64,000 bases of DNA from an uncultured Bifidobacteriaceae bacterium (GTDB taxonomy: Bacteria > Verrucomicrobiota > Verrucomicrobiia > Limisphaerales > JADLHS01), in NCBI GenBank assembly GCA_964458575.1, contig CAYWMD010000009.1, positions 54,647 through 118,646 on the forward strand, written 5' to 3'. The stretch's first letter is position 1. Each line of letters opens with the position of its first letter. Positions 12,121 through 64,000 of this stretch are shown piece by piece. The position numbers and the translations under genes were made by a program. Under the pieces are notes generated by a model. The model saw only the letters and a program-made list of their open reading frames with translations, had not been told where the DNA came from and searched no databases.

Positions 12121-12234
12121 GCGCGAAGCTTTTGGAGTGCGGTGGCAAAGCGCAGCGACGACACCGCTTTTGGCTGGCGCGCCCGCCCGCAAAAGCGGCG
12201 TGGCGCTCCGCTTCCCGTCGCAGTCCAAGAGCCG
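12121..12234. repeat. REP/MITE-like long imperfect palindrome between the bicupin and LamG genes
   Basis: The left arm cttttggagtgcggtggcaaagcgcagcgacgacaccgcttttgg matches the reverse complement of the right arm ccgcaaaagcggcgtggcgctccgcttcccgtcgcagtccaagag at roughly three positions in four. A GC-rich ~12-nt centre separates the arms. The track ORF 12028.. reads through it as SAVAKRSDDTAFGWRARPQKRRGAPLPVAVQ. Confidence 0.45.
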
Positions 12235-12243
12235 GCGGTCAGG

Positions 12244-14670: not shown

Positions 14671-14715
14671 ACGCGACCGAAATCCGACCTTTTGCCATTG
14701 GGCCGCCCTTCGACG

Positions 14716-14743
14716 TTGGATGTTGGATGTTGGATGTTGGATG
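14716..14743. repeat. Heptamer microsatellite (TTGGATG)x4 at the 5-prime end of the second LamG paralogue
   Basis: The sequence is cgacg-ttggatg-ttggatg-ttggatg-ttggatg-tttgcc. It belongs to the same word family (aacatcc/aacattc on the other strand) seen at ~42215-42240 and ~46240-46278. Confidence 0.85.
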
Positions 14744-46682: not shown

Positions 46683-48434
46683 TTACCGATTGGCGCCATT
46701 CGACTGCTCCACCACAATCAGTTTTTCCAACTGGCGCTGGAGGGCGGCTTCGACGGTATCGTAGTTTTCAGATCCCCAGACGCCGATTTCCAACAAACGC
46801 TGCCCCATGTTCCGACGTCCTGCCACCACATTGGCCAAACGGCCACGGACAGTAAGGCCTTCGGCCAAATAGGGTTGATTGTCGGGATAATCCCGAATCG
46901 CGCCATGGAAAACAAACAAAGGCGTACCGGCGTCGCTGAAGAGATACCGAGTGAAAGAGAATGAAAGACCGTTAACATGGAATTCCTTGGGTCCGAGCGT
47001 GGAACGCAACTTCTTGCCCGCAGCGGTCAGGCAGGACGTAGGTGGGTGGTTGTTGAGCATCTCCAATGTTATCTTTCCCGGCACCCAGCGGAAGTACAGC
47101 ATTTGCCATCGCGTGCCATCCGCATCTTGCCAGGCGAGATTCATGCCCTCATCGTGGCGCAGCCAAAACCGCGTGGTGTCAGTAATGGGTAGTTCCTTGA
47201 TCGGAGAACCGTTGGCTGGCTTCGAAACCGTCCAAGCGGGGGCGGGCAAAAGGTGCTTCTCGTGGATGCGATACCAGAACTCTACCCCGACGACGACGAA
47301 TGAAATCCAAACGATTAAGGCCAAGGGCAAAGTGCAGAGTGCAAAGCGCGGAGCGCGGTCCTCCCGCACGAAGCCTTCGGGTCGGAGAGGTGCAGGGACG
47401 GGAAGCGCGGAGCGGGAAGCGCGGAGCACGAAGGATAGCAGCCAAAGCCCGCTGAAGCAGCCGACGAGGATGGTGATGCCGGCGGGGTCATGCCATTTGG
47501 CGATAGCGGGCACGCCGTCGCGCGCAGCGACCCAAGTCAATAGGCTGGTGCGCCCGAAGTTAAAAATGAACGAAAGGGCGAAACCGGCAAGACAGAGGGA
47601 AAAACGGCGGAGGATAGAGAGCCGGTAGAATTCGCCGAAGAAGAGGGAGAGCATGAGGGTGGCCTGAAAGGAGCGGATGCCGCTGCAGGCGTCGTCAATG
47701 CCGACGAGGCCGGTGATGACTTCGATGACGTTGCCGTGCTGGACGGCGAGGATGCCGAGAGCGTTTAGAAGTTCGATGGTGACGGCGATGTTGGCCCGGG
47801 TGAGTACCTGGATGAGGGGATACTCGATGAAGGTGGGCCAAGGAACGGCCACTAAAAAGAATAGAAGAGGAAAGCAGAAAGTAGAAATGCTGAGACCGGA
47901 GACCGGAGACCGGAGACCAGAGGTTAGAGGACGGAGGTCAGAGGACAGAGGGCGTTCTGAAATGCTGACACGCTGAAAGGCTGACCCGCCTTCGTAACAC
48001 TTCGGCGTGGCGAGAAAGCTGAAATGAAGGATGAGCAGCGTGAGGGTGATGACGATGAGGGCGAGGGCCCAACTGATCAGTCGCCAATCAGGGTTGGCTT
48101 CCTGGATGAGGCGGGTGGGTAGGTAGAGGAAAGCGCAGATGACAAATGCTGAAATGCTGAAAAGCTGAAAGCTGAAAGCTGAAAACTGAGACCGGAGACC
48201 TGAAACGTGAAACCTGAAACGTGAAGCCGGAGGGGGATTAAGATTAAGATTAGGAGTAGAACGGAGACGGCGAAAGAGGAGGTAGATGCAGAGGAAGGGG
48301 ACGGCCCAGCCGTAGGCGTACTGGGGGTTTAACGTCCATTCTAAACGCAATTGATTGATCAAAGTGAACCAGAGCCAGGCCAAAGGCAGAAGCCAAAGGC
48401 CGAGTCTTAACCACGGATGGGGACGCTTGGACAC
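46683..48434 (-). CDS. Exosortase (EpsH/Xrt family) fused to a C-terminal EpsI-like domain, with two repeat-derived in-frame blocks
   Basis: 583-aa polytopic membrane protein with an N-terminal WxxLxxxW...NPQYAYGWAVP block. The catalytic-Cys block is VGIDDACSGIRSFQATLMLSLFF. After the last TM helix there is a ~200-aa soluble domain (WTVSKPANGSPIKELP...YFRWVPGK...) of EpsI type. The start is uncertain: the GTG at 48434 lies inside a repeat word. Confidence 0.87.
   Translation of the reverse strand: MSKRPHPWLRLGLWLLPLAWLWFTLINQLRLEWTLNPQYAYGWAVPFLCIYLLFRRLRSTPNLNLNPPPASRFRFHVSGLRSQFSAFSFQLFSISAFVICAFLYLPTRLIQEANPDWRLISWALALIVITLTLLILHFSFLATPKCYEGGSAFQRVSISERPLSSDLRPLTSGLRSPVSGLSISTFCFPLLFFLVAVPWPTFIEYPLIQVLTRANIAVTIELLNALGILAVQHGNVIEVITGLVGIDDACSGIRSFQATLMLSLFFGEFYRLSILRRFSLCLAGFALSFIFNFGRTSLLTWVAARDGVPAIAKWHDPAGITILVGCFSGLWLLSFVLRASRSALPVPAPLRPEGFVREDRAPRFALCTLPLALIVWISFVVVGVEFWYRIHEKHLLPAPAWTVSKPANGSPIKELPITDTTRFWLRHDEGMNLAWQDADGTRWQMLYFRWVPGKITLEMLNNHPPTSCLTAAGKKLRSTLGPKEFHVNGLSFSFTRYLFSDAGTPLFVFHGAIRDYPDNQPYLAEGLTVRGRLANVVAGRRNMGQRLLEIGVWGSENYDTVEAALQRQLEKLIVVEQSNGANR
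47883..48011. repeat. Repeat-word block 2 inside the exosortase ORF
   Basis: It encodes ATPKCYEGGSAFQRVSISERPLSSDLRPLTSGLRSPVSGLSIS. On the plus strand it contains ccggagac runs, gctgacacgctgaaaggctgac, and the unit gctgacccgccttcgtaacacttcggcgtggcgagaaagctga, which recurs at ~44333-44378. Confidence 0.75.
48144..48257. repeat. Repeat-word block 1 inside the exosortase ORF
   Basis: It encodes TPNLNLNPPPASRFRFHVSGLRSQFSAFSFQLFSISAF. On the minus strand it reads aatctt x2, cacgtttcaggttt x2 (14 nt), ggtctcc, cagcttt x3 (7 nt) and cagcattt x2 (8 nt). Confidence 0.78.
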
Positions 48435-48505
48435 GGATCAAAAGCTAAGAAGCTGAAACACTGAAACGCTGAAACTCGAAACTAGAAACCAGAAACTTGA
48501 GAGTA
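48435..48505. repeat. Repeat-word run immediately upstream of the exosortase (block D)
   Basis: The sequence is acggatcaaaagctaagaagctgaaacactgaaacgctgaaactcgaaactagaaaccagaaac. The preceding ttaaccacggatgg..gacacggatc word covers the first ~10 exosortase codons. Confidence 0.7.
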
Positions 48506-48608
48506 ATTACCCGTACCAAGTGCATGAACCGCGAACGACGCGAAACACGCAAAAAAGATGGCGGGCGGCAAATAGATGCAAAAGTCCGATCTTCACGCTC
48601 TCCGCTCG

Positions 48609-49172
48609 TCAGTGAGCACTTTGCGCTTCTATCACCCGTTGTTTGATGAGGACTGCCGGATTGCCACGATAAATACCGAATCGTACCAAGCTTTTCGTCG
48701 CTACGGAGCCGGCGGTGAGGACGGCGTGGCTGCCGATGGTTACGCCAGGACCGACGAAGGCGCACGCTCCGACCCACGCCCCCTGCTCGACGACAATGGG
48801 CTCAGTGATCAGGTCGAAGGCAGGAGACTTATAGTTGTGATTCCCGGTACATAGAAAAGCCCGCTGCGAAATACAAACGTGGCTTTCAATCGTGATGGGA
48901 GCGAGATTCAGCAGCCAACATTCTTCGCCGAGCCAGACATGGTCGCCCAAGGTCAGCTTCCACGGAAATGTGATTTTGACGTTTGGCTTGATGACCACGC
49001 CCCTTCCGACGCGCCCTCCAAACAGACGGAGTACGGCGCATTTCAGCCGGGAAAAGCTAAAGGGACAAAGTTGAAAGAGGAAAAGGCGGACAATCAGCCA
49101 CAAGGCTTCTCGCACGACGCCAGCGCCCCGGTCAAAATCCGGATTAGAAAACTCGGCCAGATTTACTTTCAT
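48609..49172 (-). CDS. wcaF: Hexapeptide-repeat O-acetyltransferase, WcaF-like (colanic-acid-type)
   Basis: 187 aa. It is collinear with E. coli WcaF as I recall it: LRLFGGRVGRGVVIKPNVKITFPWKLTLGDHVWLGEE...CISQRAFLCTGNHNY...GAWVGACAFVGPGVTIG...YRGNPAV. Confidence 0.82.
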   Translation of the reverse strand: MKVNLAEFSNPDFDRGAGVVREALWLIVRLFLFQLCPFSFSRLKCAVLRLFGGRVGRGVVIKPNVKITFPWKLTLGDHVWLGEECWLLNLAPITIESHVCISQRAFLCTGNHNYKSPAFDLITEPIVVEQGAWVGACAFVGPGVTIGSHAVLTAGSVATKSLVRFGIYRGNPAVLIKQRVIEAQSAH

Positions 49173-49237
49173 TGGAGCCGAAACCCTTCAGTCAGAACAG
49201 GAGTGAACAGCGCGCACAGAGCAGGAGATGGAGATGG

Positions 49238-49396
49238 GGACGCGGGTGGAACGCGTCCTTCCCCGGACATCGCAGCGCGATGTCCCTACCCGAGAGGCGG
49301 CATCTTGTCACCTGGAAGCATAGTGTAAACTGGAGTCATATCCGATTTCCGGTATTTCTTGCTGCCACAGCCCTTTCCGCCGGGCTGGAAGCCCGG
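49238..49396. repeat. Cluster of GC-rich hairpins in the 250-nt gap between two EPS genes
   Basis: There are three hairpins: GGACGCG-ggtggaa-CGCGTCC (49238-49258), GGACATCGC-agc-GCGATGTCC (49265-49285, a perfect 9-bp stem), and CCGGGC-tggaa-GCCCGG (49380-49396). The positions were checked against the codon register of track ORF 49172..49594. Confidence 0.7.
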
Positions 49397-49422
49397 CTCT
49401 ACGGCAGCCAGGATGGCTACCG

Positions 49423-50478
49423 CTACGGTTTGGGCTGCGACATTTCGTCCAACTGCTTGGATATGATTCCCAACACGCGCACGGATTCGCGCCCCTCCGC
49501 CGCGATCACCGGCGGCTCAGAACCATTGAGGATACTGTCGGCAAAGCCCTCGATTATGAAGTCATGGGTGGAACGCAGCGACTTGGTGGCATAACGCCCG
49601 CCCGCCTTGATGAGGCTGCCAATGAGGTCCTTACACTCCTGCAGGACGGACATGCCGATTGTAGCTGGTTTGAGCTTATCGCGGCGATAGACCACCAGAC
49701 TCATCGCCTCCAAGTCCACAAGCAGGATGGCTTTCTCGCCGATGATTTCCACGCGTGCCATCCATTGGTTGGAAGCGTAGGAAAGCGTTGTGGAACTGAC
49801 CGCCTTCTCGCCCGCGAGCACGATCCGGTAATCCTCGAAACGCGACCACGGATAATTGAGGAGTTTCTTCGCGTGAACGCTGACCTCGCTGATCGGATTG
49901 ATAAAGGCCAGCGTCATATAGACGATATGCGGTCCCGTCTCGCCGATCACGCCGCCGGGCAGTTTGTGGGCCCAATGATCCGGCTTGGAAGTGATGTAAT
50001 CGGTGGGGGTGGAAAGAAAAATGTTCATGCCGCGGAACTCGCCGATGACGCCTTCGCGGACGAGCTTCCGCGCTTCGATGAACGGATAATAGAAGAGATC
50101 GCTATGGGCCAGGCAGACTTTGACGTTACTGGCTGTGGCGGCGGCGATAATCGCATCGCACTCTTCGACGGACATGGCCATCGGTTTCTCGATCAAGAGA
50201 TTGGCGCCGCTCTGCGCGGCCTGGATGGCGATGGGGGCGTGGGTTTTGGGCGGGGTGCAGATGTCCACGATGTCCGGTTTTTCCTTGGCCAGCATCTCCG
50301 CGATGTTGCCGTAGGCGGCGGGGATGCCGTGCGCGGCGGCGACTTTCTGGGCGGACTCCAGATTCACGTCGCAGACGGCGGCAAGGTGCACCTTGCCGCT
50401 GTGTCTTTGGAAGGCGGGGATGTGTTTAAGTTTGGCGATCAATCCTGAACCGATAATGACTGCTTGCAGTTTTTTCAT
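49423..50478 (-). CDS. Gfo/Idh/MocA-family NAD(P)-dependent oxidoreductase (sugar-nucleotide modifying)
   Basis: The ATG at 50478 gives MKKLQAVIIGSGLIAKLKHIPAF (Rossmann GxGxxA). The EKP motif is present (NLLIEKPMAMSVEE). Confidence 0.87.
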   Translation of the reverse strand: MKKLQAVIIGSGLIAKLKHIPAFQRHSGKVHLAAVCDVNLESAQKVAAAHGIPAAYGNIAEMLAKEKPDIVDICTPPKTHAPIAIQAAQSGANLLIEKPMAMSVEECDAIIAAATASNVKVCLAHSDLFYYPFIEARKLVREGVIGEFRGMNIFLSTPTDYITSKPDHWAHKLPGGVIGETGPHIVYMTLAFINPISEVSVHAKKLLNYPWSRFEDYRIVLAGEKAVSSTTLSYASNQWMARVEIIGEKAILLVDLEAMSLVVYRRDKLKPATIGMSVLQECKDLIGSLIKAGGRYATKSLRSTHDFIIEGFADSILNGSEPPVIAAEGRESVRVLGIISKQLDEMSQPKP

Positions 50479-50558
50479 TGTGGTTTGGCTTCTGATTATC
50501 TCCCGATCATTTGTTAACGGAAGCGCGGTGAAATAATGACGCGAGCAAGTGCGGATGA

Positions 50559-51716
50559 CTAACGCGTTGTTACACAGGGCGGTTTCGGGCCGCCACCCAA
50601 AACCCAATCGTAAACGTCTTTGATTTCCAAAGCGACTCGCTCGCAGGAAAAGCGTACCTCGACGAGCTCGCGGCCTCGTTTGCCCATGGCTTGGCGTTCG
50701 GCATCGGTGGCACCTGTAGCTTCAACGAGCGTCCGAGCCAGCGGTTCCACGCCCACGTCAATCCACCAGCCACAGTTGTTGGAGACCAAGCACTCCCAAG
50801 GAGCGGCCTTGGTTGCGATTACGGGAATGCCACAACTCAGGGCTTCGGGAACCACCTTTCCAAAGTTCTCCGTGAAAGACGGCAACACCAGAACATCGGC
50901 GCTCCGGTACAGCTCCCATTTGGTGTCACCCTCTACCGGCCCTGGAAAGCGAAAAGTTCGTTGCAACTTGAGCGCGTTGATTTCCGCCTGAAGTTCCGCC
51001 TGGTGGCCGGAGTGGTCGGGGCCTGCGATGACGCACTCCCATCCTGGCGGCCTCACTTGGGCCCAAGCCCGCACGAGATTCATCAGGCCTTTGACCGGAT
51101 AAATGCGGCCGAGAAAAAGCACCTTGTGAGTTGCGTCGCCGTTGCGGGGTTCCTGCCACGCGGGAACTTCAACGCCGTCCGGAATGACGGCAATGGGCTG
51201 CTTCGCTCCGGCCGCTCGGATGGCTTCTGCCTCAAGCGGAGCCGTTGCGATGAACGCTTGCGGACGTTGCAGGTCGCGCCGCTGGTAAAGCCACCAGGCA
51301 GGGATTTTCTTCCAACGCTTGTGCCTCAAAGACCAGGAACTCAACATGCCATGAATTGTCCAGACCAGCGGGATGCCCAATTCATTGGCCACACGCGCGG
51401 TCAAATGGTTCATCGGCGTCCACAATCCGTGATTGTGAATGAGGTCAATCTTCTTCGTGCGGCAATGTTGCCTGAGCCTCCGCGTAAATCCGATTGGCAA
51501 GGCAAGCCGGAGTCTCCGGAAACAGAGCGCAGGCACGACCGTAACGTCCACCAACTCGGGTCGAGGACGATGGTCCGGTCCTTCGGCACCGGATTGCACG
51601 GTCATCACGCTAACGCCCAGTCCGTGGCGCGCCAGGGACTCGCTTTGCTGGCAGACGGCCATCATCGGTCCGCCACGGGCTTTCTCCAGGCTGTAGATGG
51701 ACAACAAGACGTTCAT
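50559..51716 (-). CDS. Glycosyltransferase family 4
   Basis: 385 aa. The N-terminus is MNVLLSIYSLEKARGGP. The C-domain is LFLGRIYPVKG...LVLPSFTENFGKVVPEALSCGIPVIAT, which carries the EX7E-type motif. Confidence 0.85.
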   Translation of the reverse strand: MNVLLSIYSLEKARGGPMMAVCQQSESLARHGLGVSVMTVQSGAEGPDHRPRPELVDVTVVPALCFRRLRLALPIGFTRRLRQHCRTKKIDLIHNHGLWTPMNHLTARVANELGIPLVWTIHGMLSSWSLRHKRWKKIPAWWLYQRRDLQRPQAFIATAPLEAEAIRAAGAKQPIAVIPDGVEVPAWQEPRNGDATHKVLFLGRIYPVKGLMNLVRAWAQVRPPGWECVIAGPDHSGHQAELQAEINALKLQRTFRFPGPVEGDTKWELYRSADVLVLPSFTENFGKVVPEALSCGIPVIATKAAPWECLVSNNCGWWIDVGVEPLARTLVEATGATDAERQAMGKRGRELVEVRFSCERVALEIKDVYDWVLGGGPKPPCVTTR

Positions 51717-51783
51717 TCAGCAGCCGAAAGGACGCGCTGTTCGCACCGAGATTCTAAAGTTCGACGTCCCATTCGCCGAGGAG

Positions 51784-52857
51784 CTAGCCGCCCAAAAAAT
51801 CACGCAAGAGCGGCAGGAATCGGTCGCGAAAGCAACCGTAACGGAAATGACTTCTCCATCGTTCGTGTGCCCGCCGGCCCAGTTCCGTTGCGCGATCAGG
51901 ATTCTTCAACAGGTAGATGAGGCGGTCCGCCAATTCATCCGGTTTGTCCAGGTTAACATTGTAACCGGTGACTCCATCCAGGTTGATTTCTGGTGCCGCA
52001 TCGTGAACCGACGCCACGACCGGCAAGCCATGCCGCATCGCTTCGATATACACCAGACCGAATCCCTCCCCCCGGCTGGGCATGGCAAACACGGTTGTGT
52101 TGCTCCAGATCGTCTCCAATTGGTCTTCCGGGACGAAACCCTTGAAGATGATTCTCGATGCAGCGGGCGACTGGGCAACCTTCTCCTCGATAAGCGAGCG
52201 GCCCGATCCCCCGCCAACGAAAACCAACCGTGCATCCGGGACACACGAAACCACCTTCGGCCAGCACTCGATCAACTCGCGATGACCTTTGTAACCGCCA
52301 TCGGGGTCGAAGCGGCCGATGAGCGTCACCGTGGGTGGGCCGGAGGCCACAGGTGCGATGAGTGGCGGCTCATCTTCTTCAGTGGCGAGCCAGCAGACTT
52401 TGGCACGTGAAAAACCACCATGCAGTGTTTCTGCCCGGTCACGCGTGTAGGCGCTGTTGGACAGCAACATAGCAGCGCGCCGGGACCAGGCGATTCGATC
52501 AACGCGCGCGCGTTCCCAAACTTCAACACCGTGGATCCAAGCCAGGAACGGGCGGTGTAGCCCAGGGCAGCGACAGTGGGCCCGGGCCATCCCAAGGAAA
52601 TCGTAGATAAAACGCGAACAGGTGAAAGCAGCCTTGTGTGATCCAAAAGCAAATCGCCACCGGGATCGGGCAGCATATTTGAAGTGAATTCCTGAACTGT
52701 GAGAAGTGTCCGTATCATTAAGTACCACTCCACAGGCTGACACCTTTCCTGCGCGGACCTCTTCGTCCAACACCTTTGACATCAACCGGGCGACCCGGCA
52801 GATCCCTCCGTTACCGGCCGAGAGCGATTCAAACCCCAGGAAGAGCTTGGGCTTCAT
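51784..52857 (-). CDS. Glycosyltransferase family 4
   Basis: The ATG at 52857 gives MKPKLFLGFESLSAGNGGICRV. The C-domain is FVGGGSG...FAMPSRGEGFGLVYIEAMRHGLPVVAS. Confidence 0.8.
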   Translation of the reverse strand: MKPKLFLGFESLSAGNGGICRVARLMSKVLDEEVRAGKVSACGVVLNDTDTSHSSGIHFKYAARSRWRFAFGSHKAAFTCSRFIYDFLGMARAHCRCPGLHRPFLAWIHGVEVWERARVDRIAWSRRAAMLLSNSAYTRDRAETLHGGFSRAKVCWLATEEDEPPLIAPVASGPPTVTLIGRFDPDGGYKGHRELIECWPKVVSCVPDARLVFVGGGSGRSLIEEKVAQSPAASRIIFKGFVPEDQLETIWSNTTVFAMPSRGEGFGLVYIEAMRHGLPVVASVHDAAPEINLDGVTGYNVNLDKPDELADRLIYLLKNPDRATELGRRAHERWRSHFRYGCFRDRFLPLLRDFLGG

Positions 52858-54346
52858 TCTTAGTGGCGTTGCGAACGCGAGGTGGACGCCGGGACACCCT
52901 CGGGCGGGGCTGCCAAATACGAAGCAGGTACAAGTAAAGAAAAGTGAAGACGGCGGGGCCGACGATTTCCGTGTGAAACCATCCGTCAACTCTGGTGCCA
53001 GCGCGAATCCACAACATAGCGATCGGCAGAATCCAGAAATCCCCCGCTGCCAAGACGGTAGTGATGCGAGTGGTAAGAATGGCGAACAGCCACCCCACGG
53101 CAGCGGACATCAGAATGAGGTACGGCCAACCCCCGTTCCAGTAAGCCTCGGCGAAAAGCCCCATCCCAAAGGTGGCGCCGACGTTGCCGGTTAATCTTGT
53201 ATAAAAGTCCCTCCCGGATTCAATTGGCGGCTTGCCAGGCCAGAGCAGGCGCGGGATCCACGCGATCAACGCAAGTTTGAAACTTTCGCCTGGCCGCCCC
53301 TCATCGTATTCCCGTATGGCGAAGGTTTGCGTGTTTGCGTAATTCAGCCGGGTCAGCCAACCGTATTTGGAGTCTTCGAGCTGTGTTGCTTGGTCTTTGC
53401 GAACGTAAGCATGCAGAAACCCCATGCGATCCATAACTGTTCCCGCGTTCGATTCAGACAAACTAGTTCGTCCAAACCGCACATACGACACGCTGCTAAG
53501 GTAAACAACTACAAGAAGTGCCGTGGCGAACACCGCTGCGCGAAGACTGGGGCGGGCCAGCAAGTAGCCGAAAGAGCAGGGAAGGAAAGCCAGGACCACA
53601 GCCAGCTTGGAGAACATCAATAAGGAAGTCCCGAGTTCGAAGCCGGCCATAATTGCCCACAACAACCACCAAATGCCGCCCCGCCTGATCGCGAGAAACG
53701 TGAGTAAGACCAACCCTGCCATGACGAAGTTGCCGAGCCAGTTCAACACGCCATGAGGAGTGAACGAAACATAGCCAAATTCGGAGAGCAGCCCGACCAT
53801 CCGACAAGGGAGCCCCACGGCGTAGCAGCCAATCATGGTTGCGACCTCGGAATCGGTACGGCGCCGCGTTGAGCAAGAAGCTCGAAGCGCCGAACCGCGC
53901 GCTGTGACTAACCATGTCCAGAACAACGTACCCAAGCCCACCCCATTCAGCAATGTGGCGCGTGTGAGGTCCTTCCACGTTACTGGCCAGACCGCCTCGC
54001 AATACGAGACAGTATGCTGATCGCCAACAAAATAGATCATTGGCCCGAGGCCGAAGTAGGCGCCCGATGCCAACAAGAACCACGGAAGAGGAGACCAGAT
54101 CAATATCCAATCCTGTCGAACTATTCGGAATGCCATTTCCCCGCAGCCCCAAGCCAAGAACACGAGCAATCCCGCGCTGGCCGCCTTGACGGGGAGTTGT
54201 TGCATGAAGGGCAAAAGCAGAGCGGCTGAACAGGCGCCGATGAGCAGTGCCCGTATTGCCACCCCAAGCACCAAGCTTGTCGCAAGTTGACCCTTCATCG
54301 CCGAGGGCTTTCCTTTCCACCTGCCTACTCCTCGCAACCTATTCAT
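52829..54346 (-). CDS. Polytopic membrane protein, probable Wzy-type polysaccharide polymerase / O-antigen-ligase-like
   Basis: About 505 aa from the ATG at 54346, which forms an ATGA overlap with the upstream GT. The alternative start is the ATG at 54298. It has at least 10 predicted hydrophobic helices and one larger loop (RKDQATQLEDSKYGWLTRLNY...). Its position inside a GT cluster fits. No diagnostic motif was seen. Confidence 0.55.
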   Translation of the reverse strand: MNRLRGVGRWKGKPSAMKGQLATSLVLGVAIRALLIGACSAALLLPFMQQLPVKAASAGLLVFLAWGCGEMAFRIVRQDWILIWSPLPWFLLASGAYFGLGPMIYFVGDQHTVSYCEAVWPVTWKDLTRATLLNGVGLGTLFWTWLVTARGSALRASCSTRRRTDSEVATMIGCYAVGLPCRMVGLLSEFGYVSFTPHGVLNWLGNFVMAGLVLLTFLAIRRGGIWWLLWAIMAGFELGTSLLMFSKLAVVLAFLPCSFGYLLARPSLRAAVFATALLVVVYLSSVSYVRFGRTSLSESNAGTVMDRMGFLHAYVRKDQATQLEDSKYGWLTRLNYANTQTFAIREYDEGRPGESFKLALIAWIPRLLWPGKPPIESGRDFYTRLTGNVGATFGMGLFAEAYWNGGWPYLILMSAAVGWLFAILTTRITTVLAAGDFWILPIAMLWIRAGTRVDGWFHTEIVGPAVFTFLYLYLLRIWQPRPRVSRRPPRVRNATKNEAQALPGV

Positions 54347-56814
54347 TTTGCAATCCTCGCGAGTTGTTTGGCTTTCGCAACTGCGCCGAGAAAACTTTGC
54401 GCGGCGGCCAAAGCGGACTGGGATTTGGCCAGTTCGCGCCCGCGAGCGCCCATCTCGCGCCGCCTTTCCGGATTTCGGTGCAGGACCTTGATGGCCTCCG
54501 CCAGTGCTGCGGTGTCCCCGCACGGATAGAGAATTCCGGACTCACCGTCCCGGAAAACATCGTTGATGCCGTAACACCCGCAACGGTCACTGAGAATGAC
54601 CGGCAATCCCAGACTTTGCGCCTCGGTGACGGCCAACGGGTGGGCGTCGCGCTCCGACGGCATCGCCAGCACATCACAGGCCGCCAGCAACCGGGGAATG
54701 GCGGTTTGATTGATGAATCCGGCGAAGCGGGCGTGACGGCTGTGACGACTTCGCAACTGGTTCTCCAACTCGCCGCTGCCGATAAAGAGAATCCTCAGGT
54801 TGTCCAGGCCACAGACCTCGGCCGCTGAGATCAAGTCCTGAGGACGCTTGTGAGGCGCCATTTTACTGCAAAAGGTCACCACAAAATCGTCAGGTTGCAA
54901 TCCGTATTGGGCGCGCAACTGGAGGCGCTCCTGTTCGCCGAAGCCTTCGACTGCCCGTTCAAAGCGGGCCAGGTCAACGGGAATCGGGCAGAAAGAAATG
55001 CGGTCGGCGGGAGCGCCGTACATCCGCAGATAATCCGCATTGTGATCACCGGCAGCCAGGAATACGGTCACTTTTCTAAAGAAGCGTGCGACGACGACGC
55101 GCTTCAAAGCGCGCCAGACCGCAGACTTCCGCCGCTCGTGGATCGCATTCGAGTCACTGTGATAAAGCAGTGGCAGCCCGGAGCGGCGGCACAAGGAAGC
55201 CACACGCCAATGATTGAGGTGGATGTAGCCTGCCACATAGACGGCCTCCCAGCCACCGCTGAGCGCCCGCGCGAGCCCTCGATTTAGACCCTTCCAACTA
55301 CAATCCAAATCGTTCCGCGTCGGCCAGGCCCGCGGCAAAAACTCGCTCTCGTAGCCTTCAAGCAAATCCACGTCCCATTTCACTTCGCGGCCGAAATCGG
55401 GGTCAACTGCGGACTCCAAGCCATGGCGGCTATAATAAAACACCTTTAGGCGGGTGTCTCCCAGCGCCGCGACCTCCTTCCACAAGGGACTGAAATGTTG
55501 GATGGGATGAGATTGGAAAATCGCGATTGCTGGCGCAGGTTCCGTTGACGCGAGAGGTGATACTTGGTGGTGACTGGTGGCGTGTAGCCGGTTACCGAAA
55601 TGGACAGGTCTTGGAGCGACTCCTTGCGCAGTCGCCGCAAGTCGCCGGGCTTTGGCAGCCGCTTTCAGAAGCGTACGGGCGGTTGCGCTCGCGGACTGGG
55701 ATTTGGCCAGTTCGCGCCCGCGAGCGCCCATCTCGCGCCGCCTTTCCGGATTTCGGTGCAGGACCTTGATGGCCTCCGCCAGTGCTGCGGTGTCCCCGCA
55801 CGGATAGAGAATTCCGGACTCACCGTCCCGGAAAACATCGTTGATGCCGTAACACCCGCAACGGTCACTGAGAATGACCGGCAATCCCAGACTTTGCGCC
55901 TCGGTGACGGCCAACGGGTGGGCGTCGCGCTCCGACGGCATCGCCAGCACATCACAGGCCGCCAGCAACCGGGGAATGGCGGTTTGATTGATGAATCCGG
56001 CGAAGCGGGCGTGACGGCTGTGACGACTTCGCAACTGGTTCTCCAACTCGCCGCTGCCGATAAAGAGAATCCTCAGGTTGTCCAGGCCACAGACCTCGGC
56101 CGCTGAGATCAAGTCCTGAGGACGCTTGTGAGGCGCCATTTTACTGCAAAAGGTCACCACAAAATCGTCAGGTTGCAATCCGTATTGGGCGCGCAACTGG
56201 AGGCGCTCCTGTTCGCCGAAGCCTTCGACTGCCCGTTCAAAGCGGGCCAGGTCAACGGGAATCGGGCAGAAAGAAATGCGGTCGGCGGGAGCGCCGTACA
56301 TCCGCAGATAATCCGCATTGTGATCACCGGCAGCCAGGAATACGGTCACTTTTCTAAAGAAGCGTGCGACGACGACGCGCTTCAAAGCGCGCCAGACCGC
56401 AGACTTCCGCCGCTCGTGGATCGCATTCGAGTCACTGTGATAAAGCAGTGGCAGCCCGGAGCGGCGGCACAAGGAAGCCACACGCCAATGATTGAGGTGG
56501 ATGTAGCCTGCCACATAGACGGCCTCCCAGCCACCGCTGAGCGCCCGCGCGAGCCCTCGATTTAGACCCTTCCAACTACAATCCAAATCGTTCCGCGTCG
56601 GCCAGGCCCGCGGCAAAAACTCGCTCTCGTAGCCTTCAAGCAAATCCACGTCCCATTTCACTTCGCGGCCGAAATCGGGGTCAACTGCGGACTCCAAGCC
56701 ATGGCGGCTATAATAAAACACCTTTAGGCGGGTGTCTCCCAGCGCCGCGACCTCCTTCCACAAGGGACTGAAATGCTGGATGGGATGGGATTGGAAAATC
56801 GCGATTGCTGGCAT
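54343..56814 (-). CDS. Tandem-duplicated double glycosyltransferase (two complete GT4-like units in one 823-aa ORF)
   Basis: The ATG at 56814 gives MPAIAIFQSHPIQHF.... The track ORF start at 56856 would overlap the ydjC-like gene. Each unit ends in the GT1/GT4 block LAMPSERDAHPLAVTEAQSLGLPVILSD. A 374-aa unit (PAIAIF...ELAKSQSA) occurs twice with identical amino-acid sequence. Confidence 0.8.
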   Translation of the reverse strand: MPAIAIFQSHPIQHFSPLWKEVAALGDTRLKVFYYSRHGLESAVDPDFGREVKWDVDLLEGYESEFLPRAWPTRNDLDCSWKGLNRGLARALSGGWEAVYVAGYIHLNHWRVASLCRRSGLPLLYHSDSNAIHERRKSAVWRALKRVVVARFFRKVTVFLAAGDHNADYLRMYGAPADRISFCPIPVDLARFERAVEGFGEQERLQLRAQYGLQPDDFVVTFCSKMAPHKRPQDLISAAEVCGLDNLRILFIGSGELENQLRSRHSRHARFAGFINQTAIPRLLAACDVLAMPSERDAHPLAVTEAQSLGLPVILSDRCGCYGINDVFRDGESGILYPCGDTAALAEAIKVLHRNPERRREMGARGRELAKSQSASATARTLLKAAAKARRLAATAQGVAPRPVHFGNRLHATSHHQVSPLASTEPAPAIAIFQSHPIQHFSPLWKEVAALGDTRLKVFYYSRHGLESAVDPDFGREVKWDVDLLEGYESEFLPRAWPTRNDLDCSWKGLNRGLARALSGGWEAVYVAGYIHLNHWRVASLCRRSGLPLLYHSDSNAIHERRKSAVWRALKRVVVARFFRKVTVFLAAGDHNADYLRMYGAPADRISFCPIPVDLARFERAVEGFGEQERLQLRAQYGLQPDDFVVTFCSKMAPHKRPQDLISAAEVCGLDNLRILFIGSGELENQLRSRHSRHARFAGFINQTAIPRLLAACDVLAMPSERDAHPLAVTEAQSLGLPVILSDRCGCYGINDVFRDGESGILYPCGDTAALAEAIKVLHRNPERRREMGARGRELAKSQSALAAAQSFLGAVAKAKQLARIAK
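54413..55534. repeat. Direct repeat copy A (1122 bp) of the GT duplication
   Basis: It is identical to 55691-56812 except at 55498 (t vs c) and 55510 (a vs g). The period is 1278 bp (= 426 codons). Identical track ORFs confirm this: 54850..55287 equals 56128..56565. Confidence 0.9.
55691..56812. repeat. Direct repeat copy B (1122 bp) of the GT duplication
   Basis: See copy A. The two differences (56776 and 56788) are both synonymous, in Q27 and S23 of the ORF. Confidence 0.9.
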
Positions 56815-56821
56815 GGGGACT

Positions 56822-57571
56822 TTACAATTCTGCGTAGCTGATGAAGCTAACTTCAAACGGCAACTCCCGCCACCAATCCGTGTGAAGTAATCGGGTTTCA
56901 GGTTCGTAGCTTGGCCAACCCGGGTGAACCATCAACTCGACCGACCGATAACTTCTTGGAATAGTCGAGCCTCTTTCGACGAACGTTTTAAGCGAAGTGA
57001 AAGCGTCGGTCGTGACCGTACGATAGCAATGCCGCATGGCCACATTCCACAGTGACTTTAGCAAGCGTCGCGACGCAGGTACCGAGCGGGGCAACGGGTA
57101 AAGATTCAAGGTGAGCCGGACCTTACGAATACCGAATCGCTTCTGGACAGCTTTTAGTACCCGGAAAATCCCAGGAGTCGTATGCATGTGATGGTGGCTG
57201 TCGAGATGGGAAATGCTAATGCCGAGCTCTTTCAACCTCTCGATCTGCGCACAAAACTCCTGAAAGATACCTTCCCGAAGGCTGGCCGTGAAACAGGTTT
57301 CCCGCGCGGCGTTCCCCCGGAAAGCACCGGCCTCATCGAGAATCGGCTGCAAGTCGTGATGCCGCGAAAGGGGACGGAATTCCGACAAGTTCAGATGCGC
57401 GCCAAAGGAGCACTGCGGCAATTCCTTCAACCACCGCGCGGCATGATCAGCGCCCGGTCCGTTGGCCAGCACGGTCGCCGACGTCACACGACCTTTTCGC
57501 ATCAACTCGAAGATCGAGTCATTGACCTGCTCGCTGTATCCCAAGTCATCCGCGTTGACTATAACTTTCAT
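56822..57571 (-). CDS. YdjC/ChbG-family carbohydrate deacetylase
   Basis: 249 aa. The sequence MKVIVNADDLGYSEQVNDSI...GAHLNLSE...HLDSHHHMH is characteristic of the YdjC family. Confidence 0.87.
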   Translation of the reverse strand: MKVIVNADDLGYSEQVNDSIFELMRKGRVTSATVLANGPGADHAARWLKELPQCSFGAHLNLSEFRPLSRHHDLQPILDEAGAFRGNAARETCFTASLREGIFQEFCAQIERLKELGISISHLDSHHHMHTTPGIFRVLKAVQKRFGIRKVRLTLNLYPLPRSVPASRRLLKSLWNVAMRHCYRTVTTDAFTSLKTFVERGSTIPRSYRSVELMVHPGWPSYEPETRLLHTDWWRELPFEVSFISYAEL

Positions 57572-57618
57572 GGGTCAGACTGCGCTCGTTAACTCGTTAT
57601 AAGCAGGAGCAGCCTTGT

Positions 57619-58347
57619 TCATGTCCGCACTGCGGTGATGAGGAACACGCGTGTGAACACCCCCGAGCCAGGGCTGCCCGTCTCGATCAGATTCCATGAG
57701 ATCAATACGACACGGAGGAGTTTCCAAAGCAACCAACGGATGGGGGAGAAGATTCCTGCCCTAAGCACCGGCCCGGCTTCGCGCGCTTCCACCGATTCGT
57801 AGCCAGACATTTCCAGCAGCCGGGTAAGGAGCTTGGGAGTGAAACAAACTTCGTGAGTAAAATCTCCGTAGCGAATACAGGCAGCCCACGGACTTTCCGC
57901 GTTCGGTGTTTGCAGGATTATTCGCGCCCCCGGATGCAACGCGTCACGGCACGCGGCCAAAAAACTCAGTACCTCGTCTTTTTGAAAGTGCTCGATGAGG
58001 TCCAATCCAACAATCAGGTCAAATTTCTGGTTCGAGGACTTGAGGTAGTCGAACACGCTTCCTTGCACGACCCTCGGGACCACTTGCCGAGCGAGATCCA
58101 CCTGTTCAGCGCTCAAATCAACCCCATGCAGGTTTTCATAACCGCAGGCTTTGAAATGCTTCAGCAGGTTGCCAGGACCACAGCCCACTTCCAGAATCGT
58201 TGCCTGCCTGTCGGCGGGAAGCCAGCCACGGAAATACGTGTGGTAGGCTTCGGACCACCTGTCTCCCCTTGCCAGCGACTTGTCCGCCCCCCGTTTCTGA
58301 AAACCGGAGACGTATTGGTTATAGATGTAATTTCGATAGTTGCTCAT
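57619..58347 (-). CDS. Class I SAM-dependent methyltransferase
   Basis: 242 aa. Motif I is ILEVGCGPGNLL, with post-I GVDLS and motif II/III LIVGLDLIEH. Confidence 0.87.
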   Translation of the reverse strand: MSNYRNYIYNQYVSGFQKRGADKSLARGDRWSEAYHTYFRGWLPADRQATILEVGCGPGNLLKHFKACGYENLHGVDLSAEQVDLARQVVPRVVQGSVFDYLKSSNQKFDLIVGLDLIEHFQKDEVLSFLAACRDALHPGARIILQTPNAESPWAACIRYGDFTHEVCFTPKLLTRLLEMSGYESVEAREAGPVLRAGIFSPIRWLLWKLLRVVLISWNLIETGSPGSGVFTRVFLITAVRT

Positions 58348-59470
58348 GCATGGGTTTTGCAGCTGTTTGGAGGTTCCGGGCGCGCAGGTCGTGGAAGACC
58401 TCCACGACTTTCCTCATCCGGTCGTCGAGGGAGTAACCTGAGTTCAGGCAGCGCTCGCGACCCCGGCGAGCCACAGTCTCGCGGTCGTTCGGCTGACGCA
58501 GGTAACAATCCACTTGCTGCACGAGTTCCTCGGGCCCGTCAAAGAACGCGGCCTCTTCGCCTTCTTTGAAGTAGCGCAGGGATTCTTCGTTGCGCTCGTG
58601 CAGCATGAACGGGCCGCAGGCCGGAATGTTGAAGGTGCGGCTGGTGATAAGATCACCCGAGCTTGCTCCCTTGCGCCCTTCGCTAAGAACAGCGAGACAT
58701 ATCTTCGCCCCCAGCAAAGCTTTGGTATATTCGTCGCCAATCACGTGGCCCCCCTGGATGCTCGACAAGAGTTCGGGTATTTGTGCATTGTCCCAAAAGG
58801 AACCCCAGATTTTCATCGAAGCGCCGGGCAAGGCTCTTCTCAGTGCTCCGAGGAGTTGCTCTTTCTTGGGCGACCATGAACCGATGAAGGCCACATCGCA
58901 ACCGTAGCGCGCACGGTCTTCCTCGTCCAACGGGAGCGGGCGGTGAATCTCGGGATCGAAGCCATGTTCGAGGAAACTGATACTTTTCACGCCGAGCTGA
59001 GCCTGCATGTCGGCAATGCCCCAGGATTTTGTGGTAAAGACATGGTCATAAAGCGGCAAGGCGCGGGGAATATAGTGGCCGTGCACCAAAAAACTCACAT
59101 CCGGATAAAAATTCACTGTCGGGATGCCGCCCTCCTTGTAGAAACGAACCACATCGGGATGAACCAAACTGCCTTTGAACACGAAAAGGCCTTGGGGTCT
59201 GAAAGCGTCCGCCAGCCGCCGAGCTTCGAGATAAAGTTCGCGAGCGAGAATCGGGCGCAGAAGCCGGCGAAGGAGGCGAGCAGGAGTAGAGCGCCAAGTC
59301 GCTCCGCTGAACTGATGTTCGTCTATAACTTGAATGGAGTGACCACGACGCCGTAGGGCCATGAATGCGGCGCGAGAATTTGAACCGAGCCAGGTTTCTC
59401 CAACGCATACGATGCGCAAGGAGGGACTATCTTTGGCTGGATTCATTGTTTGACGGGATAACCGGGCCAC
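58319..59470 (-). CDS. CgeB-like glycosyltransferase-family protein (DUF3880 plus GT1-like C-domain)
   Basis: 383 aa from the GTG at 59470; an ATG at 59446 is an alternative start. The sequence RIVCVGETWLGSNS...VAFIGSW...SRTFNIPACGPFMLHERNEE...F resembles CgeB/spore-maturation-type GTs. Both of its ends overlap neighbouring genes. Confidence 0.65.
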   Translation of the reverse strand: MARLSRQTMNPAKDSPSLRIVCVGETWLGSNSRAAFMALRRRGHSIQVIDEHQFSGATWRSTPARLLRRLLRPILARELYLEARRLADAFRPQGLFVFKGSLVHPDVVRFYKEGGIPTVNFYPDVSFLVHGHYIPRALPLYDHVFTTKSWGIADMQAQLGVKSISFLEHGFDPEIHRPLPLDEEDRARYGCDVAFIGSWSPKKEQLLGALRRALPGASMKIWGSFWDNAQIPELLSSIQGGHVIGDEYTKALLGAKICLAVLSEGRKGASSGDLITSRTFNIPACGPFMLHERNEESLRYFKEGEEAAFFDGPEELVQQVDCYLRQPNDRETVARRGRERCLNSGYSLDDRMRKVVEVFHDLRARNLQTAAKPMHEQLSKLHL

Positions 59471-60761
59471 GACTCAGCGAATGCATGATCTGCTGTAATT
59501 TCGCGAAAGAATGGTCTTCCATGTACTGTTCGAACCTTGCCGTCTTTGCCAACCGCGCCCGATACTCGGGTGAACTCATCTCCCTCAAGGCCGCCAAGCA
59601 AGCTTCCGGCGTTTGTTCCGGCAGCACGGAGCCGACCCCGTATTCGCGGACTCTTTTCGCCATGAGTTCCCCTTCGCTCACGAGCAATGGTTTTCGGAAG
59701 GCTACCGCCTTGCTGATGACATTGCTGGAATGGAGATGGTCACGATACACACAAAAAATCATGTCACAGCTCGAGACTATCGCGTTGAAGTCACCTTCCG
59801 AAGCAATTCGTTGGGGAGAGAAAACGACATTGCTTCGCCGATAGATGCCCTCGTTCAAAAAGGCCTGATGGCGTGCAGAAAACGAACCCGCCTGACAATT
59901 TCCTGCAAGCACAAAAAGGAACCCTTCAGTGTCATGGTTTTGGATCACATCCAGCAAGACATCCGCGCATTTTCGCCGGCTCAAATCCCCAAGCAATCCA
60001 ACCACCACCCGCCCCTCGCGTTTCGCGGCAATCCTGGGCACTAACTCGGGAGGCGGATTGGCAATTTGCAACGAAGTCGTCTCGGGATAAGCCACCACCT
60101 GCTTGCCCGTTTTGATCCGCACCCAATCCTCGTATCGCTCGTCTTGCATGGCTATCTGCTGGCACCGGCTTCTCCTCAACACCTGGTTCTTCTGCCAGAG
60201 ATAAAAACACCGTATCCCCGCTGCCACCCCGGTGAGCAAGCGATCTAAAATGGAATGCAACATTTTCGTAAACCAGCCGCATTTGGCTGAATTCCCCATT
60301 AACCGCGCCAACTCCTGTCTGGCCCGGCTCAATGGCCACCGCCGTTCGTGAGTGAGCAGCAACCCACTAAACGGCCAGGGCAGCAACCGCCGGATGCCGA
60401 GCCAGAGCAGCGGCAACTGCCGGACCCCGATGAACAGGCTATCGAGACTGGTATGAAAAACAAACAACGGTTCCCCGGGGGTCGCTTTACGAATGGAGTC
60501 CACTCGGGCCCGCAACTCGCGCAAATCCGCCGCCAGATCAGTAAACTTTTTAAAGCCGGTTCGGGCGGCGCGGTTGGCATGACTCACAACTGAAACTTTT
60601 TCCAGCAGCCCGGGCGGCCCGCCGACGCGTTCCAAAGGATTGGCTTCACCGGGACAGATCACGTAAATTTTGCGGCTGAAGGAGTCGCAGGCGCGAATTA
60701 ATTCCGCACAATACGACGGATGATGGCCGTCCCAGGAAACCACGATCAGGACGGTGATCAC
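59427..60761 (-). CDS. Hypothetical protein, possibly a GT-B-fold glycosyltransferase
   Basis: 444 aa. The GTG start overlaps the upstream stop (GTGA). The C-terminal half (VVVGLLGDLSRRK...FLFVLAGN...SSCDMIFCVYRD...SNVISKAVAFRKPLLVSEG) looks like a GT-B C-terminal Rossmann domain. No firm family assignment. Confidence 0.45.
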   Translation of the reverse strand: MITVLIVVSWDGHHPSYCAELIRACDSFSRKIYVICPGEANPLERVGGPPGLLEKVSVVSHANRAARTGFKKFTDLAADLRELRARVDSIRKATPGEPLFVFHTSLDSLFIGVRQLPLLWLGIRRLLPWPFSGLLLTHERRWPLSRARQELARLMGNSAKCGWFTKMLHSILDRLLTGVAAGIRCFYLWQKNQVLRRSRCQQIAMQDERYEDWVRIKTGKQVVAYPETTSLQIANPPPELVPRIAAKREGRVVVGLLGDLSRRKCADVLLDVIQNHDTEGFLFVLAGNCQAGSFSARHQAFLNEGIYRRSNVVFSPQRIASEGDFNAIVSSCDMIFCVYRDHLHSSNVISKAVAFRKPLLVSEGELMAKRVREYGVGSVLPEQTPEACLAALREMSSPEYRARLAKTARFEQYMEDHSFAKLQQIMHSLSRGPVIPSNNESSQR

Positions 60762-62083
60762 CGGACTGGTTGAGGGTTGAGGGTTGAGCGTTGCCGGAGG
60801 GCACTCTCGTAGAAATCCAGGTAGTTCTGCGTCATGTGCTGAATGCCGAATTCCCGGTGCGCCCGTTCGTACGCTCGCCGGCCTGTTTCCGAACGGAGTT
60901 GATTATCATTGATCAAGCGTTGGATGCGTTCGGCCATTTGGTTGGAGTCGCCCGGTGGGAAAAGAAACCCATTTTGACCATCGGTCACCTGGTCGGGAAT
61001 TCCTCCCACGTCGCTGGCCACCACCGGCAACCCGCAGGCCATCGCCTCGGTAATGCTCAAGCCCCAAACCTCCGCACGCGAAGCGTGAACATAAATGTCG
61101 GCGGCTTGATAATGTTTCGCCACGACACGCCGGTCGCTTAAGTGCGGCACGAACTGCAACTTCGCTTGCCCCACTTCCTCCGGCGGCCCGTCTTCTCCCA
61201 GGGCAACGAAGAACAACGGTTTCCCCGGGTTCTGGGCGCTCAAGATTTCCAGTGCCTTACGCATCGTGGGATAGTCTTTTGCAATGCTGTTGCGGATTCC
61301 CTTGGCGGCAAACAGCAGGATGGTTGCGTCGCGCGGAAAGCCCAGGTCTTGACGTGCTTCTGCTCGATCCCCGGGCTGGAAAACTGAAAGGTCAATGCCA
61401 TGGTGGATGATCCGCGTGGAGGCGACAGCCGCAGGGAGCATCGAGTTGTTCAACTTCTCCATTAGCCAGCGGCAGGGCGCGGCGATGTGCAGGCGGCTTT
61501 GGGAGTAGATCTTTTGCTTACGACGCCAGTTGTAAGCAGTGGCATCGCGCCGAATAGATGGGTAGATGGTCAGGTCGGGACACGTCCCACAACCGGTTCG
61601 CCAGCGTTCGCAGTCGAAGGAATGTGAACAATGGCCGCTCAACAGCCAGGCATCATGCAAGGTCACGACGGTGGGAATTTGCCGACTCAACCACGGCAGC
61701 ACCCGCAAATCAAAGTAGCTACCGTGCAGATTGTGCAGGTGGAGAACATCGGGCTTGTCCGGCGCGTGCTCCAACAAATGGTGACTCCCGGGAAAATCAA
61801 AATCCTCGTGTCCCAGCAAAACTCGCGCTGTGCTCCACGGTCGCCCGCACGCCCGAGCGAGCCGGTTGCCAGCCAACGGGCGGACGACTCGGTTGCATAG
61901 CCTCGCCCACTGATGTCGGTGCGCTTCGTTACGGATGGCGAGCAGTCGCTCGTCGTCAAGCGTTTTCTCCCGAACGGCCAACCAGGCGGAATGTCCCGCT
62001 GTGTTGCAACCTTCCATCAGGTCGAAGGCCAACTGTGCCGCACCGCCCCCGTGAGCGGTTGTGTTTACGTGCAGAATACGCAT
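60758..62083 (-). CDS. Glycosyltransferase family 4 with a Cys-rich insert
   Basis: 441 aa. The N-terminus is MRILHVNTTAHGGGAAQ. The insert is CSHSFDCERWRTGCGTCPD. The C-domain is VHASRAEVWGLSITEAMACGLPVVASDVGGIPD. The last codons (STLNPQP) are encoded by the ctcaaccctcaaccc repeat word. Confidence 0.85.
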   Translation of the reverse strand: MRILHVNTTAHGGGAAQLAFDLMEGCNTAGHSAWLAVREKTLDDERLLAIRNEAHRHQWARLCNRVVRPLAGNRLARACGRPWSTARVLLGHEDFDFPGSHHLLEHAPDKPDVLHLHNLHGSYFDLRVLPWLSRQIPTVVTLHDAWLLSGHCSHSFDCERWRTGCGTCPDLTIYPSIRRDATAYNWRRKQKIYSQSRLHIAAPCRWLMEKLNNSMLPAAVASTRIIHHGIDLSVFQPGDRAEARQDLGFPRDATILLFAAKGIRNSIAKDYPTMRKALEILSAQNPGKPLFFVALGEDGPPEEVGQAKLQFVPHLSDRRVVAKHYQAADIYVHASRAEVWGLSITEAMACGLPVVASDVGGIPDQVTDGQNGFLFPPGDSNQMAERIQRLINDNQLRSETGRRAYERAHREFGIQHMTQNYLDFYESALRQRSTLNPQPVR

Positions 62084-62130
62084 CGGTATGATCCTGAACG
62101 GGATAACTTTAGACCTGGACAGCCAAGACC

Positions 62131-63936: not shown

Positions 63937-64000
63937 GATTATGCCTCAATAAAACAGGTCGGGGACGCCCAGTTTAGGAGGCCGTTGGCTGTTCCAACCG

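Follow-up and report, generated by a model that had tools for sequence, protein, structure and literature searches.

Two near-identical GT4 glycosyltransferase units joined in one reading frame of an exopolysaccharide gene cluster, probably by tandem duplication, fusion, and recombination between the copies

We analyzed a 64,000-nt stretch of contig CAYWMD010000009.1 (GenBank assembly GCA_964458575.1, positions 54,647 to 118,646), referred to here as the window, in which a near-perfect direct repeat joins two complete glycosyltransferase (GT) units into a single minus-strand open reading frame (ORF). The ORF encodes an 823-aa protein, which we call the double GT, and it lies in a cluster of genes for an exopolysaccharide (EPS). 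In the account that we favor, and which we consider moderately probable as a whole, an old duplication and a fusion of the two copies gave rise to this gene, and the cores of the copies have been kept identical, or were recently made so, by recombination. The features of the locus are collected in Table 1.

Comparison of the window with itself at a shift of 1278 nt aligns positions 54413 to 55534 with positions 55691 to 56812, and these 1122-nt copies differ at 2 sites (99.8% nucleotide identity), exactly as a first-pass annotation of this DNA had described. A repeat of this length and identity is far beyond chance, and no other long repeat occurs in the window apart from one tandem pair of paralogues that are 76% identical. 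The mismatches lie at 55498/56776 and 55510/56788. Read in the coding orientation, on the minus strand, they fall in codon 9 (TCC/TCT, serine) and codon 13 (CAG/CAA, glutamine) and are both synonymous. They lie 25 and 37 nt from the N-terminal edge of the repeat, beside the unique segment that separates the copies; under uniform placement, such clustering has a probability of ~0.001 for the N-terminal edge and of 0.004 for either edge. The exact repeat runs from 56775 to 55691 in copy A and from 55497 to 54413 in copy B, and at the protein level the two cores (residues 2 to 374 and 428 to 800) are 100% identical.

The period of 1278 nt corresponds to 426 codons, and the minus-strand frame is free of stop codons from 54343 to 56856. 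Translation from the ATG at 56814 to 56812, 7 nt past the stop of the upstream gene, gives a product of 823 aa that is 100% identical to a protein (P0019) found once in the public protein collection, where it derives from an NCBI contig of 156,648 bp. The copy at the higher coordinates is the N-terminal unit. Codon 427, at the place of the start codon of the first unit, is GCG, where codon 1 is ATG. Thus, the in-frame period, the single ORF without an intervening stop, and the replaced start codon all stand as they had been described.

Each half of the product had been proposed to be a complete GT, and this held when family and fold were examined. Two Pfam families, PF00534 (Glycos_transf_1; 191.2 bits against a cutoff of 26.4) and PF13692 (Glyco_trans_1_4; 156.8 bits), each match two stretches of the protein. 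Structure prediction with AlphaFold2 from an alignment of 27 sequences gave a model with a mean predicted local distance difference test (pLDDT) score of 91.5 and two complete GT-B units, each with alternating strand/helix domains. Helices are predicted at the end of each unit (residues 375 to 397 in unit 1 and 801 to 822 in unit 2), and residues 399 to 423 have a pLDDT below 50, indicating that the linker is predicted to be disordered. The predicted template modeling (pTM) score of the model is 0.54, and the orientation of the units relative to each other is not predicted. The structure prediction that the first-pass annotation had called for therefore yielded two GT-B units joined by a disordered linker.

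The best Foldseek matches for each unit are enzymes of GT family 4 (GT4), namely, HepE (Anabaena), PglA (Campylobacter), MshA, BshA, and PimB', with template modeling (TM) scores of 0.71 to 0.79 when normalized to the target, and sequence matches to the PDB agree with the GT4 placement. These enzymes share with the window units the GT-B fold of two Rossmann domains and the signature of the C-terminal nucleotide-sugar domain, but they are just 13 to 20% identical to them in sequence; the donor and the acceptor cannot be inferred from matches of this kind. The acidic E/D-x7-E motif lies in PSERDAHPLAVTEA at residues 293 to 306 (D297-x7-E305) and is identical in the second unit; E305 is invariant across an alignment of 12 family members. 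No NCBIfam equivalog was reached for the GT unit (best score of 63.9 bits against a cutoff of 462.5). By every sequence and fold test applied, the GT unit is classified as a member of GT4.

The 22 residues that follow each core differ far more than the cores do: tail 1 reads SATARTLLKAAAKARRLAATAQ and tail 2, which ends at the stop codon, reads LAAAQSFLGAVAKAKQLARIAK, and 10/22 residues are identical, in line with the earlier description of the tails as about half identical. The tails align in register and without gaps, with 40/70 nt identical (57%; z of ~6 relative to the locus background). When tail 2 is set against other 70-nt windows of the locus, the number of identical positions is 17.6 ± 3.7, and 0 of 14,444 such windows reach 36. 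Identity at codon positions 1, 2, and 3 is 15/23, 14/23, and 11/24, such that the third position is the most diverged, and both tails match the QS-x3-AA pattern of the terminal helix in the family. This pattern of substitutions is one of old divergence under protein-level constraint, and the tails are truly homologous yet far more diverged than the cores.

The homology of the tails ends at the stop codon, and none was found beyond the 70 nt. The TGA that closes tail 2 lies opposite a GGA in tail 1; thus, one substitution would have been enough to remove the stop between the units, consistent with the proposal that this stop was lost. The identical tract is sharply bounded, in that 99.8% identity over 1122 nt gives way, with no transition, to homologous sequence with 57% identity over 70 nt. 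So abrupt a step requires either recombination (conversion or continuous homogenization) or an effect of assembly on the core, and it is of the kind that gene conversion or concerted evolution leaves behind.

The 156-nt segment between the copies (tail 1 plus an 86-nt spacer) is unique in the window. In register, the spacer matches the sequence after unit 2 at 18/86 nt and the sequence before unit 1 at 21/86 nt, neither of which amounts to similarity, and a BLAST search of the spacer against the window and all fetched loci revealed no similarity either. An origin of the spacer as a former intergenic or flanking segment was considered and is unsupported by these comparisons. The linker is free of in-frame stops, contains none of the start codons ATG, GTG, and TTG in frame, and has no site that resembles a promoter or a terminator. 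We therefore rejected the idea that unit 2 is expressed on its own from an internal promoter, terminator, or start; it can be translated solely within the fusion. This agrees with the in-frame fusion originally proposed, in that the linker has no canonical internal start codon.

To assess the duplication, we turned to independent Logan assemblies (k = 31) from the same population, in which three runs belonging to one series (SRR13076506, SRR13076500, and SRR13076528) contain the locus. Contigs of SRR13076506 (100% identity to the window) and of SRR13076500 (99.98%) end at position 56746, and another SRR13076506 contig begins at position 54442. Each of these contig ends lies exactly 30 nt (k − 1) inside the exact repeat. 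A de Bruijn unitig must stop where two different paths enter and leave a shared sequence; thus, the breaks at both edges indicate that the junctions from linker to core and from core to tail 1 exist in those reads, and the tandem fusion junction is very probably real. The first-pass annotation had named an assembly artifact as the main alternative to a true repeat. That concern stands for the copy number and the degree of identity, and it fails for the fusion junction, in favor of which the unique 156-nt segment and the k − 1 breaks both speak. An exact lookup of 14 predicted products of repeat-internal and linker contigs found none in the protein collection; these comprised the 361-aa core (both alleles), an 84-aa linker piece, and subfragments between the variant clusters described below, as well as a single-copy product bearing the window allele and a 1249-aa product of three copies.

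In SRR13076528, a 2075-nt contig (SRR13076528_277492, here L003) extends unbroken from the YdjC gene, across a single GT of 397 aa, to the downstream gene. The GT on this contig carries the copy A variants at codons 9 and 13 and then tail 2, and the 953 nt that flank its core do not differ from the window. L003 could represent a closely related single-copy strain, which is either ancestral or derived by unequal crossing-over; the latter would give exactly its product, with the head of copy A and the tail of copy B. It is also possible that L003 is a low-coverage path from which the loop was lost.

Related loci were searched for the same arrangement. A HMMER search against 1.84 billion representatives returned 1065 hits below 1e-30, mostly proteins of ~400 aa. 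The nearest homologue is 56% identical and is encoded by a single 399-aa gene, which overlaps the next gene, encoding a 515-aa membrane protein, by ATGA (locus L087). In the window, the TGA of the double GT overlaps the ATG of the membrane-protein gene in the same way (ATGA). Since the single gene of the nearest homologue ends in this overlap, the end of the original gene seems to be the one present in unit 2 with tail 2, and the single copy looks ancestral. The comparison with orthologous EPS loci that had been suggested found one gene at every related locus examined. Among GTDB species representatives, which include no close relative of the source (best identity of 44%), the 80 best-matching loci contained no tandem pair of this GT subfamily, and a scan of JGI metagenomes found one related locus, with a single copy that is 50% identical by realignment (45% in the scan listing). 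An earlier stage with two separate genes, which the first-pass annotation had postulated, is thus not represented at any related locus examined. The downstream membrane protein has homologues at 52% and 47% identity, and the YdjC protein has homologues at ≤59%; all of these lie in differently arranged clusters, with no such GT adjoining.

Collectively, these data suggest the following origin for the double GT. A whole GT4 gene, bounded at about its start and stop codons, would have been duplicated in an exosortase-linked EPS cluster, and the duplication would be old, because the tails are at 57% nucleotide identity with a coding-like pattern. The first copy would have lost its stop when TGA became GGA, and in the second copy the start codon would have decayed. 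Homologous recombination between the copies, through gene conversion or unequal crossing-over, would either have maintained the identity of the 1.1-kb cores or have created it recently. Exchange of this kind could not enter the nonhomologous spacer, so that the tail, and now the first 13 codons, would drift. The same recombination could delete or add units in frame and could thereby have produced the single-copy 397-aa variant in the sister read set. The age of the duplication, conversion as the mechanism, activity of both units, and a copy number of exactly two are points that we infer. The older duplication implied by the first-pass annotation is supported by the diverged but homologous tails (57% versus 99.8%), while its claim that homogenization was recent does not stand apart from continuous homogenization. 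The resulting protein would consist of a GT unit, a helix (tail 1), a disordered linker of ~30 residues, a second GT unit, and a second helix (tail 2). Because the catalytic cores are identical, it should resemble a homodimer whose halves are covalently tethered and share the specificity of the single-copy enzyme, rather than a polymerase with two specificities.

Several observations weigh against this origin. Short-read assembly would retain differences within about one k-mer of unique sequence, and the two sites at which the copies differ both lie there; any difference deeper in the repeat would be collapsed. Therefore, neither the perfect identity nor the count of exactly two should be taken at face value, and the former, perhaps also the latter, could be a product of short-read collapse. 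The L003 core has eight differences from the window, seven of them synonymous and one A150P. They fall in three clusters of 7 to 11 nt each: codons 146/148/150 (contig positions 1195 to 1205; window equivalents 56367 to 56377 and 55089 to 55099), codons 286/287/289 (1615 to 1624; 55948 to 55957 and 54670 to 54679), and codons 308/310 (1681 to 1687; 55885 to 55891 and 54607 to 54613). The individual sites in the window are 54607/55885, 54613/55891, 54670/55948, 54676/55954, 54679/55957, 55089/56367, 55093/56371, and 55099/56377. The clusters resemble either short patches left by recombination or copy-specific variants that are hidden in the window; on the second reading, the assembler of the window may have merged true differences between the copies. 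With no difference in the 953 nt of flank, the eight in the core give a p of ~0.007 with independent sites and of ~0.16 as three single events; in view of the latter value, we make no claim that divergence is raised in the L003 core. In addition, no relative close enough to date the duplication was found in the collections searched, another tandem pair of paralogues in the window has drifted to 76% identity without homogenization, and concerted evolution that lasts long is reported to be rare in prokaryotes (PMC6053082).

These points bear most directly on the alternative that the tandem array is real but that the assembler passed two times through a single collapsed repeat node of 1.1 kb, such that differences between copies were merged and the copy number is two or more. 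We view this as possible, if distinctly less than an even prospect. Both surviving mismatches lie no more than 37 nt from the unique linker (P of ~0.001 to 0.004), and the independent k = 31 assemblies cannot cross the repeat. Judging from the behavior of de Bruijn assemblers, a path that enters the repeat, passes through the linker and the repeat again, and then leaves would be the minimal walk through such a graph. L003 could supply the hidden variation, in that its flanks are identical to the window but its core is a second allele, whose eight differences are clustered and for the most part synonymous. However, mismatches near the edge of a conversion tract are also expected biologically, and L003 crosses both edges of the repeat unbroken, which is a better fit to a single-copy strain than to one copy of a two-copy genome.

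The diverged tail could also have a separate source. If the duplication of the core were recent, tail 1 and the spacer could have been imported from a diverged allele or paralogue, through horizontal transfer into a mosaic EPS locus, with no long concerted evolution. The EPS loci around the homologues are indeed highly mosaic, with the membrane-protein and YdjC homologues occurring in other gene orders without this GT; the nearest homologue and the sister read set are in the single-copy state; and the clustered synonymous patches of L003 resemble short recombination imports. Nevertheless, codons 2 to 374 are in perfect register without an insertion or deletion and the homology ends at the stop codon, which favors exchange between resident copies, and no donor of tail 1 or of the linker was found in the window, the fetched loci, or the protein collections searched. 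We rate an imported tail as rather unlikely. That the duplication is wholly an artifact, with one 397-aa gene as in L003 and a second copy and linker that stem from a misjoin, is very improbable: despite the single-copy path in SRR13076528, the single copy at every related locus examined, and the lack of the 823-aa protein from any second public assembly, the unique 156-nt segment keeps the frame and starts with a diverged homologous tail, which a misjoin would not create, the contigs of two other read sets stop k − 1 nt inside both edges and so require that in those reads the core be entered and left by another route as well, and a closed graph loop of core, linker, and core would need connecting reads.

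Should the favored account of duplication, fusion, and recombination be correct, the 1278-nt unit might further serve as a module that expands in frame, with RecA-type unequal crossing-over switching the gene among one, two, and three or more units (397, 823, and 1249 aa) in the manner of a contingency locus. We put forward this extension as a speculation with little chance of being right. If true, the module would vary the dose or processivity of one glycosyltransfer step, and hence the EPS, within a population, and the single-copy contig L003 in the sister sample would be one state of the locus.

Table 1. Coordinates of the double GT, its parts, and its surroundings in the window
Feature	Position	Strand	Basis or remarks
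Fused ORF, two GT4 units, 823 aa	54343..56814	-	ATG 56814-56812, TGA 54345-54343; ORF list, Pfam, P0019 match
Repeat copy A, N-terminal core, codons 1-374 from third base of ATG	55691..56812	-	TCC at codon 9, CAG at codon 13; period-1278 comparison
Tail 1, residues 375-397, predicted C-terminal helix of unit 1 plus GGA	55621..55690	-	In-register nucleotide comparison, predicted helix, family pattern
86-nt spacer, read through as interdomain linker GVAPRPVHFGNRLHATSHHQVSPLASTEPA	55535..55620	-	Stop-free in frame, ends with GCG at the place of the start codon; low pLDDT
Repeat copy B, C-terminal core	54413..55534	-	Codon 9 of the unit is TCT, codon 13 is CAA; period-1278 comparison
Tail 2, residues 801-823, predicted C-terminal helix of unit 2 plus TGA	54343..54412	-	Sequence, predicted helix 801-822
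Downstream 505-aa multipass membrane protein	52829..54346	-	Candidate polysaccharide polymerase-like protein by position
Upstream YdjC/ChbG-family putative carbohydrate deacetylase	56822..57571	-	Pfam YdjC, 166.6 bits
EPS cluster around the double GT	46683..63936	-	Pfam; NCBIfam exosortase signature

The cluster around the double GT encodes, in order, a HAD-like protein, a GT4 enzyme, a protein of unknown function, a Glyco_trans_1_2 protein, a methyltransferase, the YdjC/ChbG-like deacetylase, and the double GT, followed by the 505-aa membrane protein, two GT4 enzymes, a GFO/IDH oxidoreductase, and, further on, an exosortase-like protein. The downstream membrane protein has no Pfam or NCBIfam match, and its homologues sit in similar EPS loci. 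Its start is ambiguous (54298 to 54346): the ATG at 54346 gives 505 aa, as called on the Logan contig, and the NCBI annotation uses a later ATG for a product of 489 aa (P0170). Exact copies of the YdjC gene are present on three independent Logan contigs. The GC content is 0.59 to 0.62 across the repeat and 0.55 to 0.60 alongside it, and with so unremarkable a base composition we ruled out that the repeat is a foreign insertion.

Other features of the window were recorded in passing. At the far end of the cluster, the GC content falls to ~0.46 at 62000 to 64000, over the HAD-like gene (601 aa, 62131 to 63936, minus strand), versus ~0.57 in the rest of the cluster, which suggests that this region is a separately acquired part of the locus. 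In the locus of a YdjC homologue (L088), a similar HAD-like gene, of 606 aa, lies directly upstream of YdjC. The stretch from 42 to 46 kb, between a WcaI-like GT gene and the exosortase-like gene, is poorly coding and contains dispersed direct repeats of 130 to 180 nt that are 83 to 95% identical (43437 to 43593 versus 46025 to 46181, 44210 to 44340 versus 44496 to 44621, and 43317 to 43485 versus 45498 to 45673); these may be repeated small genes or regulatory regions. GCTGAAA/CTGAAAC heptamers, GATTAA hexamers, and GGAGACC repeats occur at 42305 to 42350, 43357 to 43400, 44300 to 44332, 47900 to 47950, 48148 to 48250, and 48440 to 48500, some of them inside or just upstream of the exosortase-like ORF (46683 to 48434, minus strand), and GC and AT skew are locally strong at 48000 to 48600. 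The second tandem pair of paralogues aligns window positions 12295 to 14642 with 14789 to 17136 (ORFs 12028 to 14670 and 14657 to 17164, plus strand). It encodes proteins of 880 and 835 aa without an NCBIfam match, is 76% identical in nucleotides over ~2.4 kb, and is not homogenized.

The closest parallels to the double GT come from its own subfamily. Among the 150 best representatives, 14 have two matched stretches, and 4 are full-length doubles of the same subfamily, with half-to-half identities of 52% (P0045, 847 aa), 32% (P0022, 805 aa), 29% (P0043, 801 aa), and 28% (P0032, 792 aa). In each of them, as in the window protein, both halves are full-length members of the "SHPIQ(H/Y)F" GT4 subfamily joined by a short linker, which in P0045 is rich in proline, alanine, and threonine, and the offset between halves is ~400 to 432 residues, compared with 426 in the window protein. 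The halves of these proteins are 28 to 52% identical, whereas the cores of the window protein are 100% identical and solely the last 22 residues of its units differ. The double-GT architecture is thus recurrent, viable, and evidently retained in nature, and the window protein represents its least diverged known instance. If the duplication is confirmed, it would offer a snapshot of the birth of a dual-module GT, taken when one stop had been lost and the spacer served as a flexible linker, before the modules diverged. Together with the subfamily fusions whose halves are 52 to 28% identical, such stages can be lined up as a series.

The window copies can also be compared with known cases of concerted evolution, which has been described in prokaryotes (PMC6053082), and with poxvirus gene arrays, in which recombination drives both rapid homogenization and changes in copy number (PMC6115191). 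Common to these cases and the double GT are paralogues far more alike than their age suggests and a sharp step to diverged flanking homology. The published cases rest on phylogenies or long reads, whereas the window copies are known from assembled sequence and are fused in one ORF; they are therefore a possible example of prokaryotic concerted evolution inside a single ORF. For metagenome-assembled genomes more generally, perfect identity within a repeat longer than the reads should not be taken for biology without checks of depth and variants.

In its domain layout, the double GT resembles a group of enzymes from other surface polysaccharides. WbbM and WbbY are dual-GT polymerases; in them, as in WbdA and the window protein, a single polypeptide from a surface-polysaccharide gene cluster contains two complete GT modules. 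WbdA, from Escherichia coli O9/O9a and Klebsiella pneumoniae O3, has two or three GDP-mannose-dependent GT modules, each of which forms a different linkage, and it acts in an ATP-binding cassette (ABC) transporter pathway with the terminator WbdD (PMC11231755). The catalytic cores of the window protein are identical, so that its modules cannot differ in specificity through their cores, and its locus appears to be linked to an exosortase and includes a polymerase-like membrane protein. Among the ten cluster genes scanned, neither an ABC transporter gene nor one resembling WbdD was seen. With modules that are not diverse, the double GT is therefore not a polymerase of the WbdA type, though it follows the same domain logic. 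As an evolutionary phenomenon, it belongs with tandem duplication and gene conversion: a real but fairly ordinary case of in-frame duplication or concerted evolution and a tidy example of how a double GT is born or homogenized, rather than a new system.

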